Shown in pieces: positions 936-28,962 of a stretch of DNA of 37,308 bases. A program made the translations under genes and the position numbers. Source of the stretch: a virus (Duplodnaviria > Heunggongvirae > Uroviricota > Caudoviricetes); IMG/VR virus record IMGVR_UViG_2684623059_000004; one strand, 5' to 3'. Numbering within the stretch: position 1 is the first letter of the stretch; each line of letters starts with the position of its first letter. A model generated the notes under the pieces. The model made no database searches. It was not told where the DNA came from and saw nothing but the letters and a program-made list of their open reading frames with translations.

Positions 936-2621
936 GTGAATATAAACGTCGCCGAATTGTTAAATGGGAATTACATTCTGTTATTATTTGTGGTCCTCGC
1001 GCTTGGGCTGTGTCTCGGGAAATTACGACTTGGCTCAATCCAACTGGGTAATTCCATTGGCGTTTTGGTCGTATCGCTGTTATTAGGCCAACAACATTTC
1101 AGCATTAACACCGACGCACTGAATCTTGGTTTTATGCTGTTTATTTTCTGCGTCGGGGTCGAAGCCGGACCCAACTTTTTTTCCATTTTTTTTCGCGATG
1201 GGAAAAATTATCTAATGTTAGCCCTGGTAATGGTCGGCAGTGCGCTGCTGATCGCCTTAGGGCTGGGTAAGCTGTTTGGCTGGGACATCGGCCTGACAGC
1301 CGGGATGTTAGCTGGCTCCATGACTTCAACACCAGTTCTGGTTGGTGCCGGCGATACGTTACGCCATTCTGGTATGGAAAGCAGGCAGCTCTCTCTGGCA
1401 CTGGATAATCTTAGCCTCGGGTATGCGTTAACCTATTTAATTGGTCTGGTCAGTCTGATTGTCGGCGCGCGTTATTTACCGAAGTTGCAGCATCAGGACT
1501 TGCAGACCAGTGCTCAACAGATCGCCCGTGAACGAGGTCTGGACACCGACGCCAGCCGTAAAGTCTATTTACCTGTCATCCGCGCCTACCGCGTCGGCCC
1601 GGAACTGGTTGCATGGACCGACGGCAAAAATCTGCGAGAACTGGGCATCTATCGGCAAACGGGTTGCTATATCGAGCGTATCCGCCGTAATGGGATTCTG
1701 GCGAACCCGGATGGCGATGCCGTGCTGCAAATGGGTGATGAAATTGCGTTGGTCGGTTACCCTGACGCCCACGCCCGACTCGATCCCAGCTTCCGTAACG
1801 GTAAAGAAGTTTTTGATCGTGACCTTCTCGATATGCGTATCGTCACTGAAGAGGTAGTAGTTAAAAACCATAACGCCGTTGGTAAACGTCTGGCGCAATT
1901 GAAATTGACCGATCACGGTTGCTTCCTTAACCGCGTCATCCGCAGCCAGATAGAGATGCCAATCGATGACAACGTGGTACTTAATAAAGGTGACGTGTTG
2001 CAAGTCAGTGGTGATGCCCGTCGCGTGAAAACCATCGCCGATCGCATTGGCTTTATCTCAATTCACAGCCAGGTTACCGATTTGCTGGCATTCTGCGCAT
2101 TCTTTGTCATTGGTCTGATGATTGGGATGATCACTTTCCAGTTCAGTACATTTAGCTTTGGCATGGGTAATGCTGCCGGATTGTTATTTGCCGGTATTAT
2201 GCTGGGCTTTATGCGCGCCAACCATCCTACCTTCGGCTATATTCCGCAGGGTGCCTTAAGCATGGTGAAAGAGTTCGGTTTGATGGTGTTTATGGCAGGC
2301 GTTGGTTTAAGCGCCGGTAGCGGCATCAATAACGGCCTTGGTGCAATTGGCGGTCAAATGCTAATTGCCGGATTGATTGTCAGTCTGGTGCCAGTGGTTA
2401 TCTGCTTCCTGTTCGGTGCTTACGTACTGCGTATGAACCGCGCGCTGTTATTCGGCGCAATGATGGGAGCACGTACTTGCGCTCCGGCAATGGAGATTAT
2501 CAGCGATACTGCGCGCAGTAATATCCCGGCGCTGGGCTATGCAGGTACCTATGCAATAGCTAACGTGCTACTGACGCTGGCGGGGACAATCATTGTAATG
2601 GTGTGGCCAGGACTCGGATAA
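936..2621 (+). CDS. ybjL: putative AAE-family transporter YbjL
   Basis: 561-aa ORF with hydrophobic N- and C-terminal halves separated by a soluble central region; position next to ybjM. Confidence 0.8.
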
Positions 2622-2733
2622 ACCTGAAGTTGCCCTGAGAATGAAATTTTTTTGCACAAGCGCAGAACTTTTCTTCGGGGCATCAGTCTTAATTAGTGCC
2701 ACTGCTTTTCTTTGATGTCCCCATTTTGTGGAG

Positions 2734-2777
2734 CCCATCAACCCCGCCATTTAGGTTCAAGGTTGATGGGTTTTTTG
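2734..2777 (+). terminator. rho-independent terminator-like hairpin downstream of ybjL, near the prophage junction
   Basis: perfect 10-bp stem cccatcaacc (2734-2743) / ggttgatggg (2761-2770) followed by tttttt. Confidence 0.5.
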
Positions 2778-2856
2778 TTGCCTGATTTTTATGCCGTTTA
2801 AAATCATGATGTTAGAAGCATTGCTTTTTAATGATGGCGACAAAATGGCGGCAGCG

Positions 2857-4266: not shown

Positions 4267-4748
4267 GACAGCAGCCCTCCCACCGTTTTACTTATATCGC
4301 TTAAGGCAGATGTTGCCGTTTCCTGCAGATTATTCAGTTGCACACTGAGATCACCGAACATATCGGACAGGGATTCATCCACCCGTTTGAGCGACAGGGT
4401 GAATTCAATCCGGCGCGGCATACCGTCGCGGAAAAACTCCGTTTTAGTCTGATTCAGTCCCTCAATCACATACATGCCATAAATCGTGCCGCTGCCTTCA
4501 ATCAGGGGCCATGCTTTCCCCTGTTCTGCCATCTGCTCCAGTGCCAGCAACGACAGCCTGCCACCTGTTATCTCCGGCATAAGAACACCGGAAAGCGTCA
4601 GCATGTCGTTGTCCGGTCCCAGAAACTGCGTGGACGGACGTCGGTTTACCCGGCTGTTTGCCGCATGTCGCCAGCTGCGTTGATACTGCAGCTCCTGATA
4701 CGGCACGGTGCGCAGCATAAACACGTACAATCCCAGCACCATCATCAT
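4263..4748 (-). CDS. U: tail protein U
   Basis: 161-aa ORF between T and D, overlapping both. Confidence 0.8.
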   Translation of the reverse strand: MMMVLGLYVFMLRTVPYQELQYQRSWRHAANSRVNRRPSTQFLGPDNDMLTLSGVLMPEITGGRLSLLALEQMAEQGKAWPLIEGSGTIYGMYVIEGLNQTKTEFFRDGMPRRIEFTLSLKRVDESLSDMFGDLSVQLNNLQETATSALSDISKTVGGLLS

Positions 4749-7700
4749 GCGTCGTATCCCCCCTGATCGCTGTAGTTACTCCTGGCTTTTGCCTTCAGCC
4801 TGCGTTCACGTTCATCAAGCTGGCGTGCCACCTCCCGCGCAATATCCTGCGCACTTTGTCCTGGCTGCGTCTGGATGATGATCTGCGTCGGTGCCTCAAT
4901 CCGGTGAACGGGCGGCACTGTAGCTGCGCGACTCACCATCGCTTCGCCGCCTTTCGCGGGAAGCGCCAAAGGATGCAACGGTGGAAGCTCTGCTGGCGCG
5001 GCAGCAACGCCCATCATTCCGGCGACAACCGCAGCCAGTGCAGCTGTATTTCTCCGGCTGGTCACGTTTGCCGGACCGTTGACAATTTCAGGCCCGTTTT
5101 CACCGACAATGCCGAACTGCCCGCGCGGGATATAGCCGCCGCTGTCATACATCCCCGCAAAGCCATATCCCCATGACGGAAAACCACCCGATGGCATCAT
5201 CACTTTACCGTCTGCATTCACCGTCGCAGGTTGCTGACGCGTCACGCTTTCCGGCAGTTTCGCCTTTGCAGCCTCTTTACTGACAATGCCGAGTTTATCA
5301 AGCAACCAGGAAACGCCGGATTTCAGGGAGTCCAGCGGATGCATGACCATATTCAGCCCTTCCGCCAGTGCCTCCCCGAATCGTCGCCCCATTGCCGCTG
5401 CACTCTGCAGTTCGGCAGAGGTCGACTTAACGGGCGTCAGCAGATCAGTAAACCAGTCCCACAGCGCCTGTACTTTGTCGCCAATCCACTGGAACACGGG
5501 CTTAAGCGGTTCGAATGCTTCACTGACGGAACCTGCCGCCGCTTTGAATCCTTCCACCACGCCACCGAGAAATGCGGTGATGGGTTGCCAGTATTTCCAG
5601 ACAACCAGCGCCACGCCCGCCAGTGCAGTAACCACAAGACCTATCGGACTGAGCAGAGCACCTAACAGACCAGATACGGCATACAGGGCAACGCGCAGCA
5701 TCGCCAGTGGACCAGATGCCAGTACTCGCAGCACCGTGCCTGCGGCGGCCAGTCCACCGCGCAGTACCGCCAGAGGATTCATAAACATCACAGCAACAGC
5801 ACGTAAACCGGATAATCCAGACCGCAAAAGTGCAACTGGCGCACCTGCTACAGTTTTCAGGACATTTCCCGTCAGTGATGCCGTGCGGCGCAAAGACGAC
5901 AACGGCGCAGTAAGTAAACCTGCGGCGTTGCCCGATGAAGCAAGCCCGCGTCGCAGCAGTGCCAGTGGAGCGCCAGCCAGCCAGGACAACGCGTTGCTGG
6001 TTCGAGTTACTGCTGCCGTAACGGAAGGTAACGTTTTGATACCCAGCACAGAGAATCCCAGACGGATCACTGCCAGCGGCCCCAGCACTGCAGCCAGCGC
6101 CACCGCTAAGGTGCCGAGGCCTACGGTAACCGCAGCCACAACAGCCGCTACTTTCATCAGTGTGCCTGTCAGTTCCGGGTTAGCTTCCACCCAGCGGCGC
6201 AACGCCCCCGTAATGCTTTTCACCGTGTACAGAATATCCATCAGCGGCTGGCGCAGCGTTTCGCCCAGGCTGCTGAAGGTGTTCTGCGCTCCGGTTTTGA
6301 CCAGCAACCACTGAGCGGAAAGTGAGTCTTTGTTGATGTCGGATTCTTTCTGCATGGAACCGAGCGCATCATTGCCCGCTGTCAGTTTTAGCTGGCGCTG
6401 CAGTTCCGGAAGGTTGTTCGCCAGTTTCGCTGCATCATCACCAAACTCTTTACCAAACAACATGGTCATGGCAGACAGACGCTTGTCCTGCGGCAGTGCG
6501 TTCACCTTCTCCAGCACACGCTGGATAGTTCCCATCGCATCCTTCGTCATCTGCTTTTCAATCACTTCAGGATTGAGTTTCAGCAGATTCATCCCTTCAA
6601 AGAAACTCTTGCTTTGCATGGTGGCAATGGACAATTCACGCACCATCGCGTTTGCTGCACTGGCTGCAACCTCCGGCGCAGCACCCAGTGTCAGAAAGGT
6701 GGAACCCAGTGCCGCCGCTTTACGATAATCCAGACGGTCAGCCACACCGCCCAGACGTTGCATCACATCAATGATGTCCGCCCCTTTCGACATGGCGTTA
6801 TCATCCAGATAGTTCAGCGCATCGCCGAGCTGTTCAATATTGCGGGTAGGTATTTTGTAGAGCTGGGCGATTTTCCCCAGACTTTCTGACAGTTCATCCG
6901 CTGGCAGCTCAAAGGCTGTTGCCGCCTTTGCTGCCGTACTGGCGAAGGCCAGCAGGTCACGTTTCTGGTCTTCCCAACTGTCGTCAGGGTTTGCGACGTT
7001 CATGCGCGCACCACCTTCAACCAGTGCAGCGAAGTCCACCGCACCGTTTTCCATCGGCAACTGTTCGCTGGCAGCCTTGATGGCATCCTGCATTTCATAA
7101 AAACGTGCAGTGCGGTTGCCATTATCGTCACGCAGACCATTGACCTGCTTTGCCACACCTTTCATGGCATCTTCCATGCTGGTATAGCTTTTTACTGCCG
7201 CCATCACTGGCGCACCCATTGCCAGCCCTGCAGCCGTGGTAGTGGCTCCGGCTCCTGCGATGCGATCGCGCACTTCAAGCCGTCTTGAGTATTGTTCTCT
7301 GGCAGCGTTCATCCGTGCCTGTTGCTCACCCAGACGTTTAAGTGCTTTTTGCTGGCCCTCCAGTGCCTGCCTTGTTTCTTCAGCATTTTTCTTAAGTTCT
7401 CGCTGGGCACTACTGAGTTGTCTGGTATCAATCCCTGATTCTTTAAGTGCCTGACGTTGTCTCTGGACCGCCCCCAACAAGCCGTTATAGGTCTGCTGAA
7501 GTTCCTGTACTCGTGTTTTGGCCTGACTGAATAACTTTGCCTGCGCGGCGGTTGGCCTGTTAGTGGCAGCAAATTGTGTGGCGAGTTTTGCCGCCTCTTC
7601 GCGGGCTGCGTTCAGGTTGTTGGCTGTTATGGCTAGTTGCGAGCGCGTCTTGCGAAATTCATCAATTCTGCCAGCCTGCTTATTCAATTCTTTGAGGCTG

Positions 7701-7822
7701 TTTCGGGTATTCTGAATTGCGCCAGCCAGCTCTTTCGAACTGGCCTGTGCAGCACGGAATGGGCGGGTGAGTTTGTCAACCGCATTAAGAATGACCTGCA
7801 GGCGCAGGTTATTATCACTCAT
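4745..7822 (-). CDS. T: tail tape measure protein
   Basis: 1025-aa ORF, coiled-coil-rich N-terminus, central repeated hydrophobic PLAxLRxGL motifs; position after E/E'. Confidence 0.85.
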   Translation of the reverse strand: MSDNNLRLQVILNAVDKLTRPFRAAQASSKELAGAIQNTRNSLKELNKQAGRIDEFRKTRSQLAITANNLNAAREEAAKLATQFAATNRPTAAQAKLFSQAKTRVQELQQTYNGLLGAVQRQRQALKESGIDTRQLSSAQRELKKNAEETRQALEGQQKALKRLGEQQARMNAAREQYSRRLEVRDRIAGAGATTTAAGLAMGAPVMAAVKSYTSMEDAMKGVAKQVNGLRDDNGNRTARFYEMQDAIKAASEQLPMENGAVDFAALVEGGARMNVANPDDSWEDQKRDLLAFASTAAKAATAFELPADELSESLGKIAQLYKIPTRNIEQLGDALNYLDDNAMSKGADIIDVMQRLGGVADRLDYRKAAALGSTFLTLGAAPEVAASAANAMVRELSIATMQSKSFFEGMNLLKLNPEVIEKQMTKDAMGTIQRVLEKVNALPQDKRLSAMTMLFGKEFGDDAAKLANNLPELQRQLKLTAGNDALGSMQKESDINKDSLSAQWLLVKTGAQNTFSSLGETLRQPLMDILYTVKSITGALRRWVEANPELTGTLMKVAAVVAAVTVGLGTLAVALAAVLGPLAVIRLGFSVLGIKTLPSVTAAVTRTSNALSWLAGAPLALLRRGLASSGNAAGLLTAPLSSLRRTASLTGNVLKTVAGAPVALLRSGLSGLRAVAVMFMNPLAVLRGGLAAAGTVLRVLASGPLAMLRVALYAVSGLLGALLSPIGLVVTALAGVALVVWKYWQPITAFLGGVVEGFKAAAGSVSEAFEPLKPVFQWIGDKVQALWDWFTDLLTPVKSTSAELQSAAAMGRRFGEALAEGLNMVMHPLDSLKSGVSWLLDKLGIVSKEAAKAKLPESVTRQQPATVNADGKVMMPSGGFPSWGYGFAGMYDSGGYIPRGQFGIVGENGPEIVNGPANVTSRRNTAALAAVVAGMMGVAAAPAELPPLHPLALPAKGGEAMVSRAATVPPVHRIEAPTQIIIQTQPGQSAQDIAREVARQLDERERRLKAKARSNYSDQGGYDA

Positions 7823-8251
7823 CGTTAGCCCCGCTTCTCTGAATCGCTTTATACCGCCATTCCAGCACTTCGGTCAGCGGCATAACGTCAGTAACGGATG
7901 GCGGCCAGTGAAAAATGGTGGCGATATCTGCCACCAGATCGTCAACCGTCAGGCTGTCGGTAAACCGGCAAGCACCGACTTCTTCAACAAAAAAGTGACA
8001 ACCTCAACCGACATGGCAGTGAGATCTGCCGGGTCCATCTCTGCAATTTCCTGTGCAGTCAGCGCCGGGCTGGAGATGCGGGGGATCACGGTCATCATCG
8101 CGTTCACATCCATATCCATAATGGCCTGCAGGCGTGTACCGCGCAGCGCACCGGACTGCGGTTTACGCAGCACAATTTCGGTAATTTCTGTTTTACCACG
8201 CATGATGGGGGTATCCAGTAGAATGGTCTTTTCAGTCTGCTTATCGCTCAT
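7815..8251 (-). CDS. E+E' chaperone produced by programmed -1 frameshift
   Basis: slippery site on the minus strand at 7994..7988 in correct phase; -1 frame stays open for 57 codons and stops at 7817..7815, overlapping the T start. Confidence 0.6.
7949..8251 (-). CDS. E: tail assembly chaperone E
   Basis: 100-aa ORF upstream of T; contains the T TTT TTG slippery heptamer near its 3' end. Confidence 0.75.
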   Translation of the reverse strand: MSDKQTEKTILLDTPIMRGKTEITEIVLRKPQSGALRGTRLQAIMDMDVNAMMTVIPRISSPALTAQEIAEMDPADLTAMSVEVVTFLLKKSVLAGLPTA

Positions 8252-8305: not shown

Positions 8306-8821
8306 TCAGAGGCCGAGGGCGTTGCGGTGCGCTTCCATCAAGTCCACACCGTCCACAATTTCCACCATGTTGATAAGGTCCACTTCATAGAGCACCTCAC
8401 CATTGATAGTCAGCTTCGCGTAGCTGTTGGTACTGGTCACTTTGGTGGTGTTGCTTTCGCCCGTCTTCCACTCGCCGGAATCCACTTCTTTGTGACGTCC
8501 ACGCACCACAAGCTCCACGGCCTGCACTTCCCCGGTATCATCACGCTGGATAGAGCCGGTAAAGCGCAACTGGATGCCATCCACCGTGGCTTTGCCCATC
8601 TGTTTAAACAGCAGCAGTTCAGTACCACCAATGGAAAATTCTGTGTCCAGCGCACTGTCATCAAGCCCCAGATCCACATCCACTGCACCCGGCATTCCGC
8701 CGCCGCGATACTTCTCATATTTGCGGGTGAATTTCGGCAGCGTCAGCGACTCAACGATCCCCTGCCAGTTATTCCCGTCGTTAAACAGGTTCAGGTGTTT
8801 TAATTTACGTGGTAAAGCCAT
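8306..8821 (-). CDS. FII: tail tube protein
   Basis: 171-aa ORF in the P2 FII position and of P2 FII size. Confidence 0.85.
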   Translation of the reverse strand: MALPRKLKHLNLFNDGNNWQGIVESLTLPKFTRKYEKYRGGGMPGAVDVDLGLDDSALDTEFSIGGTELLLFKQMGKATVDGIQLRFTGSIQRDDTGEVQAVELVVRGRHKEVDSGEWKTGESNTTKVTSTNSYAKLTINGEVLYEVDLINMVEIVDGVDLMEAHRNALGL

Positions 8822-8830
8822 GTTGTCCCC

Positions 8831-10003
8831 TTACGCGCTGACCTGGCTGGCGAAATTCACCAGGTACTGATCGGTGATGCGCTGACGCAGCATCAGGTTT
8901 TCAAGTGGTGGCACTGGCGTGTAGTCGTAATCGATGGTGAGTTTTCCGGCTTTCAGAGTGTCTTTGTCGTTCACCGACTCATCCAGCCAGCAATCGCCAC
9001 CAATGAGATAGCCCTGACTGACCAGGCTGCGCATTTTGGCGCGGATACCTTCGATAATGTCCCGGGCCAGCGACGGGTTAAGCGGTTTATCCACCGCCCA
9101 CATGTGTGCTTCTGCCATCGTGTCCATCAGCACCTGCGCCGTGCGGGTGTAGTTTTCGAAGGCAAAGAGCGGGTCATCACTCAGGCAGCGGGAACCCCAG
9201 AAGCGGAAACCGTCTTTGCGGATAAGGGTGGTGACGTCGTTCTGGTTCAGCAGTCCAGCATCGGTTGCCGTGTCCTGCAGATCCCAGAACACATCAGCAG
9301 AAATTCCGGTGACACCGTTAACGCCCACATTGGACAGGCTTTTGTGCCATCCGATCTGCTCGTCAATTTTTGCGCGCAGACCAAGCGCACGGGCGGTGGC
9401 ATATGCCGTTGCTTCGGCATTCAGCACCGTGTCCCAGCCAGTAAAGTCGGGCCAGATCAGCATTCCTTCGCGCTGGCTGAAGTTTTCACGGTAAGTGATC
9501 GCCTCCTGCACCGTCTTGCAGCCATACGCTGACAGGTAAGCAAACCCACGCAGGCTTTGCGCCACACTCAGCAACTCAGTAGCAACGGCTTTGTTATCGT
9601 GACCTGGCACGCCGAGAATGCGCGGTTTAACGCCGAGCTGTGACTGGGCAGATAACAGGGCTTTCATGCCTGTTTTTTTACCTTCAGCGGTCACTGCTCC
9701 GATGATATTGGTCGTGGTTTCTTCTTCCGTTTCACCCTGCGGCACACGCACAACAACGGTCACGGGTTTTGCCTGGTCAGCGATGGCGTCCAGCGAACGG
9801 GCCAGCGTACCGGACTCACCCGCTTTACCGCTGGCAGTCAGCACATCAGTGATCAGCACGGGTTTATTAAGAGGAAACATTTTTGCATCGGCATCATCGC
9901 CCGTGCAGACCATACCCACGATGGCGGTGCTCACCGTGGTAATGGATCGGGTGCCTTCGTTGACTTCAACAACGCGCACTCCGTGGTGGTAATCCTGAGC
10001 CAT
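8831..10003 (-). CDS. FI: contractile tail sheath protein
   Basis: 390-aa ORF in the P2 FI position; AGGAGG Shine-Dalgarno upstream. Confidence 0.85.
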
Positions 10004-25980: not shown

Positions 25981-27927
<1,947 letters not shown>

Positions 27928-28171: not shown

Positions 28172-28849
28172 CTAGAACGTGACAGCCTTGTCAAAGCCAG
28201 AAATAATTGTATAAGAAATAGACGAGTTATCAGCCTTGTTCACTTTGAACTTGGCACCTTTGTAAGCGATAACATCACTTCCCTTAGAATCTACAGAAAA
28301 ATCTGTTGTAAATGCTGCACGAGCCATATCGTTTGCAAATTCACGATAGGTGAACTTCATTACACCGCCTGCATTTCCATTGTATTCGATAGTCTTAACC
28401 AATGAATTACTCACTCGACACAGCCCATCAGGAACACGTTTGATAGAAATTTCTGATGCAGTATAAGAAGTGCCATTTGGCGGTGATATCTCATTTTTTG
28501 CAGCATCGTAACTAACATAATCAACATAGTTACCGATTTGCCCATAGAGATTTTTTAACGCAACAGCTTGAGGATTATGATAATTGCGGTAAATTCCATT
28601 CCCCTCACTGCAATATGTACCAGCAGCGATAGAAGACAATGCACCATTAGCCGCACCAAGTTCTAGTACGTCCGTTTTAAATCCAGTAGCAGATGTGATA
28701 ATGGGATCGCCCATGTAGGCGGTAGCACTTTGCCCAATAGCTGGCTTCACCACTTCAATAGCAGTGATATTTCGGTTAGAAGCATGTGGCACGCAACCAG
28801 TTAGGATTACAGCAAGAGATATTGGTAACGCTACATTATTAATTTTCAT
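28172..28849 (-). CDS. prophage lipoprotein at the P2 old/tin position
   Basis: signal peptide MKINNVALPISLAVILTGC with lipobox; start taken at Met19 of the longest ORF; own terminator. Confidence 0.7.
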   Translation of the reverse strand: MKINNVALPISLAVILTGCVPHASNRNITAIEVVKPAIGQSATAYMGDPIITSATGFKTDVLELGAANGALSSIAAGTYCSEGNGIYRNYHNPQAVALKNLYGQIGNYVDYVSYDAAKNEISPPNGTSYTASEISIKRVPDGLCRVSNSLVKTIEYNGNAGGVMKFTYREFANDMARAAFTTDFSVDSKGSDVIAYKGAKFKVNKADNSSISYTIISGFDKAVTF

Positions 28850-28962
28850 TTTTAGCCTATTATTCTTTTCTTGACAAAAAACAAGGCGATATCTGATTGA
28901 CATCGCCTCTCACTCATATGTAACCCTTTTTGATTAGTAAAAACAAGCGTCTATTGACAAAA

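Follow-up and report, generated by a model that had tools for sequence, protein, structure and literature searches.

A programmed -1 frameshift in the tail genes of phage P2, reported for the FETUD tail operon (Christie et al. 2002, J Bacteriol 184:6522, as cited in PMC3091744 and PMC3931495), gives rise to two proteins, a 91-aa E and a 142-aa E+E' (PMC3091744). The G/GT pair of phage lambda is made in the same way, and a frameshift is a generally conserved feature of the tail genes of dsDNA phages (Levin 1993; Xu, Hendrix and Duda 2004, 2013, 2014; reviewed in PMC5009743). In lambda, the roles of G and GT are to chaperone the tape measure protein and to recruit tube subunits (PMC5009743). That both products are made at a low fixed ratio and that both are required for tails has been established for P2 and lambda only. 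The frameshift is also already known in the lineage studied here, as the record of Salmonella phage Fels-2 carries the note "forms functional gpE+E' if translational slippage occurs". The records of phages L-413C and Wphi include a joined CDS marked "-1 frameshift", and slippage is likewise annotated in the records of 186, KS5, Smp131 and Mannheimia phage 1152AP.

The DNA examined here (the window, 37,308 nt) is, by its sequence, a Fels-2-like prophage (Felsduovirus, Peduoviridae) flanked on the left by some host DNA. The first-pass annotation had identified a frameshift site in it as that of the P2 E/E' genes, and this identity was backed by Pfam matches, gene order, alignment with P2, conservation of the heptamer and the annotation of relatives. 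The locus is thus supported as a further case of the P2-type E/E+E' tail chaperone frameshift, which has been described before, and we are highly confident that it encodes the programmed -1 ribosomal frameshift of this type in a Fels-2-like (Peduoviridae) prophage.

The P2 fusion built here was 142 aa, agreeing with the published length, and included a 57-codon extension. When the fusions of P2 and the window were compared, as the first-pass annotation had recommended, they aligned without gaps, including across the junction, and were 48% identical over 141 aa (BLASTP, E = 6e-50), with the junction VVGFLVAELGA in P2 and VVTFLVEEVGA here. The two loci also share the heptamer T TTT TTG, the aligned Phe-Leu position, the -1 direction, the 57-codon extension, the 8-nt overlap of E' with the start of T and the gene order FI-FII-E-E'-T-U-D. 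They differ in the length of E (91 aa in P2, 100 aa here), of the fusion (142 and 145 aa) and of the 0-frame tail after the slip site (6 and 12 residues), and their DNA has so little identity that blastn picks up no more than short stretches. In an alignment of the window with P2, 186, Fels-2 and KS5, the heptamer was found at the identical position in all five.

The geometry in Fels-2 (STM2699/STM2697.1) is identical to that in the window, with the TTG of the heptamer 13 codons before the stop and a fusion of 145 aa; the two are 85% identical in DNA sequence over the locus and are separated only by point differences. The closest matches to the locus were found in the Klebsiella and Escherichia Fels-2-like phages 4LV2017, Cartapus and 500465-1 (96.6-98.4% identity, blastn). 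Lambda shares the chaperone and recruiter roles, which are assigned here by analogy; it has no sequence similarity, a different heptamer (G GGA AAG) and a non-contractile tail.

Gene order and anatomy of the locus

The E/E' pair is located between the tail tube (FII) and tape measure (T) genes, as seen from the list of open reading frames and Pfam matches, in the order FI-FII-E-E'-T followed by GpU and GpD (U, D). The features of the locus are listed in Table 1. The product of gene T is the presumed client of E and E+E'.

Table 1. Features of the E/E' locus and the adjacent tail genes (positions in the window)
Feature	Position	Strand	Basis or remark
Gene FI, tail sheath protein	8831..10003	-	Pfam PF04984, PF17482, PF22671; upstream of FII
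Gene FII, tail tube protein	8306..8821	-	Pfam PF04985 Phage_tube, 8.8e-60; immediately upstream of E
Gene E, 0-frame tail assembly chaperone, 100 aa	7949..8251 (including stop codon)	-	List of open reading frames, translation
Shine-Dalgarno-like GAGG (GAGGT, 8005..8001), possible 5' stimulator	8002..8005	-	7 nt upstream of heptamer
Slippery heptamer T TTT TTG	7988..7994	-	X XXY YYZ phase, codons Phe87-Leu88
E' extension, -1 frame, 57 codons and TGA	7815..7988	-	Translation; G 7988 read twice
Dual-coding overlap, C-terminal tail of E and N-terminal linker of E'	7949..7987	-	Least variable stretch of the locus
Candidate small hairpin GUCGGU-N12-ACCGAC, 6 bp	7956..7979	-	Begins 8 nt after heptamer; in centroid fold
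Gene T, tape measure, 1,025 aa	4745..7822	-	Pfam PF10145 PhageMin_Tail, 2.2e-18

The E reading frame runs on the minus strand from the ATG at 8251 to a stop codon at 7951..7949. Its product matched the Pfam family PF10109 Phage_TAC_7 ("tail assembly chaperone proteins E, or 41 or 14"; E = 1.1e-17) and phrog_103 'tail protein' in PHROGs (2e-41). The first T of the heptamer is the third base of codon 86, giving the local reading ACT TTT TTG (Thr-Phe-Leu), and translation bore out both the X XXY YYZ phase claimed in the first-pass annotation and its placing of the site 13 codons before the E stop, counted from the TTG codon. In the 0 frame, 12 residues follow the slip site (LKKSVLAGLPTA). Directly after a TGA at 8006..8004, the -1 frame becomes open at 8003 (9 nt before the heptamer) and contains no stop until the TGA at 7817..7815. 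A -1 frame stop between 7988 and 7820, which the first-pass annotation had said would count against the site, was looked for and none was present, and the 57 sense codons that it had counted after the slip proved correct.

The conceptual E+E' fusion is composed of 88 residues of E and 57 of the extension and is therefore 145 aa, not the approximately 143 aa first estimated, though it is near the 142 aa of P2 as had been proposed. The TGA that ends E' does not overlap the start codon of T, as had been thought, but lies 2 nt beyond the ATG at 7822..7820 (ATGAGTGA); the E' and T reading frames overlap by 8 nt. The E' part corresponds to PF06528 Phage_P2_GpE (Pfam, 2.9e-18, residues 107-143 of the fusion), and phrog_1756 covers residues 85-145, including the junction. 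A further PHROGs family, phrog_6416, was also among the matches to the E/E' proteins. No NCBIfam model matched the fusion and a search of PDB sequences with it revealed no solved relative.

By homology and from the literature, we infer slippage by the ribosome, with an efficiency that would set the proportions of two chaperone proteins. Most ribosomes would continue to the E stop at 7949 and produce the 100-aa chaperone. A minority would slip back by one base with tRNA-Phe and tRNA-Leu on UUU-UUG, re-pair on UUU-UUU, and read 57 more codons to the TGA at 7817..7815, yielding a 145-aa E+E' with the same N-terminus as E. If the roles are those of lambda G/GT and P2 E/E+E', binding or coating of the tape measure protein T would fall to the part that E and E+E' share, and recruitment of tube subunits to the E' domain. 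A low fixed ratio of the products, set by the efficiency of the slip, would be needed for correct tail assembly. Neither E nor E+E' would be expected to end up in the virion, if lambda is a guide (PMC5009743).

Conservation of the heptamer and the reading of the overlap

Examined in one sequence alone, a slip site of this kind is only suggestive. TTTTTTG was not enriched in the window (17 copies versus 12.2 +/- 3.3 expected), and heptamers in the X XXY YYZ phase were found at 29 of the 9,612 codons in its genes (0.3%), so that about 5% of 17-codon stretches, the length of the overlap here, are expected to include one by chance. These figures leave some room for the view that E is the sole product and that neither the heptamer nor the open -1 frame is more than a coincidence. 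The conservation data are decisive: the heptamer and the relation between the frames are conserved universally among the loci compared, the -1 frame holds a Pfam domain, and it is under purifying selection. The coincidental reading is accordingly negligible in our estimate, having effectively been refuted already by the comparative sequence data set out below.

A tblastn search with the fusion matched 427 phage records, of which 387 cover at least 80% of the query. Each of the 56 best-covering of the 60 matches listed consisted of two pieces, as expected because the match changes reading frame. A set of 19 loci was fetched, 18 from diverse phage records and one from the record of an E. coli replicon, and in all of them E' was in the -1 frame and an in-phase slippery heptamer was found inside the overlap. 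In most this was T TTT TTG. T TTT TTT was found in Smp131 and a Vibrio phage, and T TTT TTC in Aeromonas phage 3. Two records have a non-homopolymeric heptamer at the corresponding position: Xuanwuvirus P88_4B11 has A AAT TTT, and a Mannheimia phage has G GGA AAG, as in lambda.

A species-level scan, using one genome per bacterial species, recovered 80 loci from Gamma- and Betaproteobacteria, with identity to E as low as 45%. The search pattern (L/M-DPADL...) was peptide-based, derived from an alignment of six sequences, and the heptamer was not part of it. One locus was cut off by a contig end, and in each of the remaining 79 the -1 frame encoded E' and an in-phase T TTT TTN was present, with the final base being G in 67, A in nine, C in two and T in one. 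In the IMG/VR collection, all 80 near-identical contigs also had a -1 E' and the heptamer (TTTTTTG in 79, TTTTTTA in one); these copies are 98-100% identical and confirm the site while giving little information on divergence. Homologues lacking the heptamer, the other finding that the first-pass annotation had listed as adverse, were absent from all three sets (79/79, 19/19 and 80/80).

The run of T residues was retained even in genomes with 67-69% G+C, despite their codon bias. In the flanking genes in these hosts, TTT makes up approximately 5-10% of Phe codons and TTR approximately 1-10% of Leu codons, and T is found at 2-7% of third positions. The joint expectation for the T-run from codon usage has a median of approximately 0.003 per locus, a value that is not to be multiplied over loci that are phylogenetically related. 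Because the run persists where the codons that compose it are rare, the heptamer is, on this comparison, conserved at the nucleotide level and beyond what Phe-Leu alone would require.

The diversity of the locus was examined in 22 distinct Fels-2-like sequences. Past the E stop, variability tracks the -1 frame, with pi values of 0.085, 0.028 and 0.228 at codon positions 1, 2 and 3, a pattern that shows purifying selection on E' in this lineage. Mean pairwise diversity was lowest in the overlap (0.064, versus 0.179 in the E-only part and 0.114 in the E'-only part).

An independent small gene, in which a 39-aa peptide is initiated at GTG 7934 with no frameshift, is the model adopted by PGAP. In RefSeq and GenBank records, a 'GpE family phage tail protein' CDS of 120 nt stands alone at the equivalent position, and the Pfam PF06528 model starts at exactly the residue encoded by this GTG (107 of the fusion). 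However, the GTG is the earliest ATG, GTG or TTG in the -1 frame and lies 18 codons past the slip site, and no homologue compared has a -1 frame stop within these 18 codons. Residues upstream of it are conserved with the P2 protein (F..LxVDDL), and phrog_1756 spans fusion residues 85-145. No AGGAGG-like Shine-Dalgarno sequence was seen in the approximately 20 nt before the GTG (GACAGCCTGACGGTTGACGATCTG) when these were inspected by eye, unscored, and an in-phase heptamer kept against codon bias would have no role. Independent initiation at GTG 7934 is therefore unlikely, and a gene without any frameshift is in our view highly improbable. Because PF06528 begins at the PGAP start residue, its extent suggests that truncated ORF calls were used to build the model in place of the full frameshift extension.

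Slippage could also take place during transcription, with RNA polymerase adding an extra U in the U6 run so that some mRNAs encode E+E' in one frame; residue 88 would then be Phe instead of Leu (...VVTFF-VEEV...). In keeping with this, nearly all homologues have a T6-T7 homopolymer (79/79 at the species level, and T7 in Smp131 and a Vibrio phage), and the base that follows it differs between loci (G, A, C or T), making the run itself the conserved part. However, the run here is just 6 long, and efficient transcriptional slippage in bacteria usually requires approximately 8-9 or more A or T residues. The homologues with A AAT TTT and G GGA AAG offer no run on which RNA polymerase could slip, and tandem tRNA slippage is favoured because such non-homopolymeric heptamers occur. 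Ribosomal slippage is also preferred over transcriptional slippage because the heptamer always keeps to the X XXY YYZ phase, a constancy that matters for tRNA re-pairing and not for the polymerase. In addition, P2 and lambda have been published as ribosomal frameshifts (PMC3091744, PMC5009743). Slippage by the polymerase is thus very unlikely to account for E+E', and the programmed -1 ribosomal frameshift remains the preferred reading.

Candidate stimulatory elements

The sequences on either side of the heptamer were examined for elements that might stimulate the ribosomal frameshift. Downstream segments of 58 nt and 95 nt from the window, P2, 186, KS5 and a Kapieceevirus were folded, and none was significantly stabler than its shuffles (z from -1.6 to +0.2 across the folds; for the hairpin region of the window, the MFE gave z values of +0.18 and -1.62). 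Covariation in the candidate hairpin (Table 1) was counted on 21 distinct Fels-2-like sequences: a single pair was compensatory (U-A, U-G, C-G), four were invariant, and 103 of 500 shuffles scored equally. The invariance of the hairpin is uninformative because the stretch codes for two proteins. A different 5-bp pairing (17-21 with 26-30), which includes no compensatory pair, is just as possible. Neither of the two candidate downstream hairpins was distinguishable from the shuffle control, and no stimulatory role is claimed for them.

Upstream of the heptamer, (T/G/C)GAGG was found in 30 of the 79 species-level homologues and a G-rich stretch in most, commonly 7-16 nt upstream; this GAGGT or G-rich signal is confounded with Glu/Lys-Val and Gly coding and with high G+C content. 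When the whole window was searched with Rfam at gathering thresholds, only the host RNA RybB was found, with no frameshift element and nothing at the locus. Lambda is not known to need a strong stimulatory structure. No clear stimulator has been reported for P2 or for the P2-like phages of Burkholderia either (PMC3091744). That the Fels-2-like lineage has added stimulators of its own to the P2 site, in the form of the 3' hairpin, the upstream GAGGT or both, seems doubtful. If it has, these lineage-specific elements could tune the ratio of E to E+E', whereas P2 reportedly has none.

Prophage context, prevalence and annotation

At the left end of the window, a gene for an Asp-Al_Ex/TrkA_C permease (936..2621, plus strand; 9e-84) belongs to the host chromosome, as does the sRNA RybB at 2701..2779 (plus strand; Rfam, 106.5 bits). 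Phage homology was found from approximately 2891 onward, and the prophage appears from this arrangement to be integrated beside rybB. An integrase gene (36100..37308) reaches the right end of the window.

Several other features of the prophage were observed. Close to the end of T, an in-phase G GGG GGA heptamer is found at approximately 4757..4763 (minus strand), 4 codons before the T stop (4747..4745). The -1 frame at this point is the frame of gene U, which overlaps T at an ATGA, and a slip would fuse T to U; this heptamer is probably a coincidence. A serine recombinase gene (10146..10718, minus strand) had NCBIfam matches, the DNA invertase Mpi family among them, all under the curated cut-offs. 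Near it are 27-nt inverted repeats (10768-10794 and 12673-12699) that are 81% complementary, share an AAACC..GGTTT core, and enclose approximately 1.9 kb with ORFs for the C-terminal part of a tail fibre and for tail-fibre assembly on both strands. The recombinase and repeats together look like an invertible host-range switch of the Gin/Cin/Hin type.

A 629-aa reverse transcriptase is encoded at 25981..27870 (minus strand) and matched Pfam RVT_1 (5e-31) and, over its full length, the PADLOC retron type I-C RT-Toprim models (1.5e-217). The neighbouring 243-aa ORF (28172..28903, minus strand) had no match in Pfam or PADLOC, and no msr/msd RNA was found in the window by Rfam at the gathering threshold. 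The matches of the reverse transcriptase point to retron-type anti-phage defence cargo beside the capsid and portal genes.

When 5,426 complete genomes of E. coli were considered, 1,002 had the E/E' region. The matching places in such genomes numbered 1,039, with 1,030 on chromosomes and nine on plasmids. Essentially identical phages have been deposited as circular E. coli 'plasmids' (CP019275.1, 37,446 bp, and NZ_CP148327.1, 42,418 bp), one of which is 100% identical to the window over the E/E' region. These records may represent excised or replicating phage genomes that were assembled as circles, or a phage-plasmid lifestyle.

In RefSeq/PGAP records of this element, a 39-aa 'GpE family phage tail protein' is given as a CDS apart from E and no slippage is marked. 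The stand-alone E' CDS corresponds to 7815..7934 (minus strand) in the window, and its equivalents in the loci L002 and L179 of the two circular records lie at L002:1967-2086 and L179:2846-2965.

The locus adds nothing conceptually new to the tail chaperone frameshift paradigm of P2 and lambda. Its comparative data illustrate selection at the nucleotide level on a slippery site, seen in the T-run of genomes with 67-69% G+C. The main value of the finding is for annotation, as PGAP splits the product and misses the 145-aa E+E' in a very common prophage.
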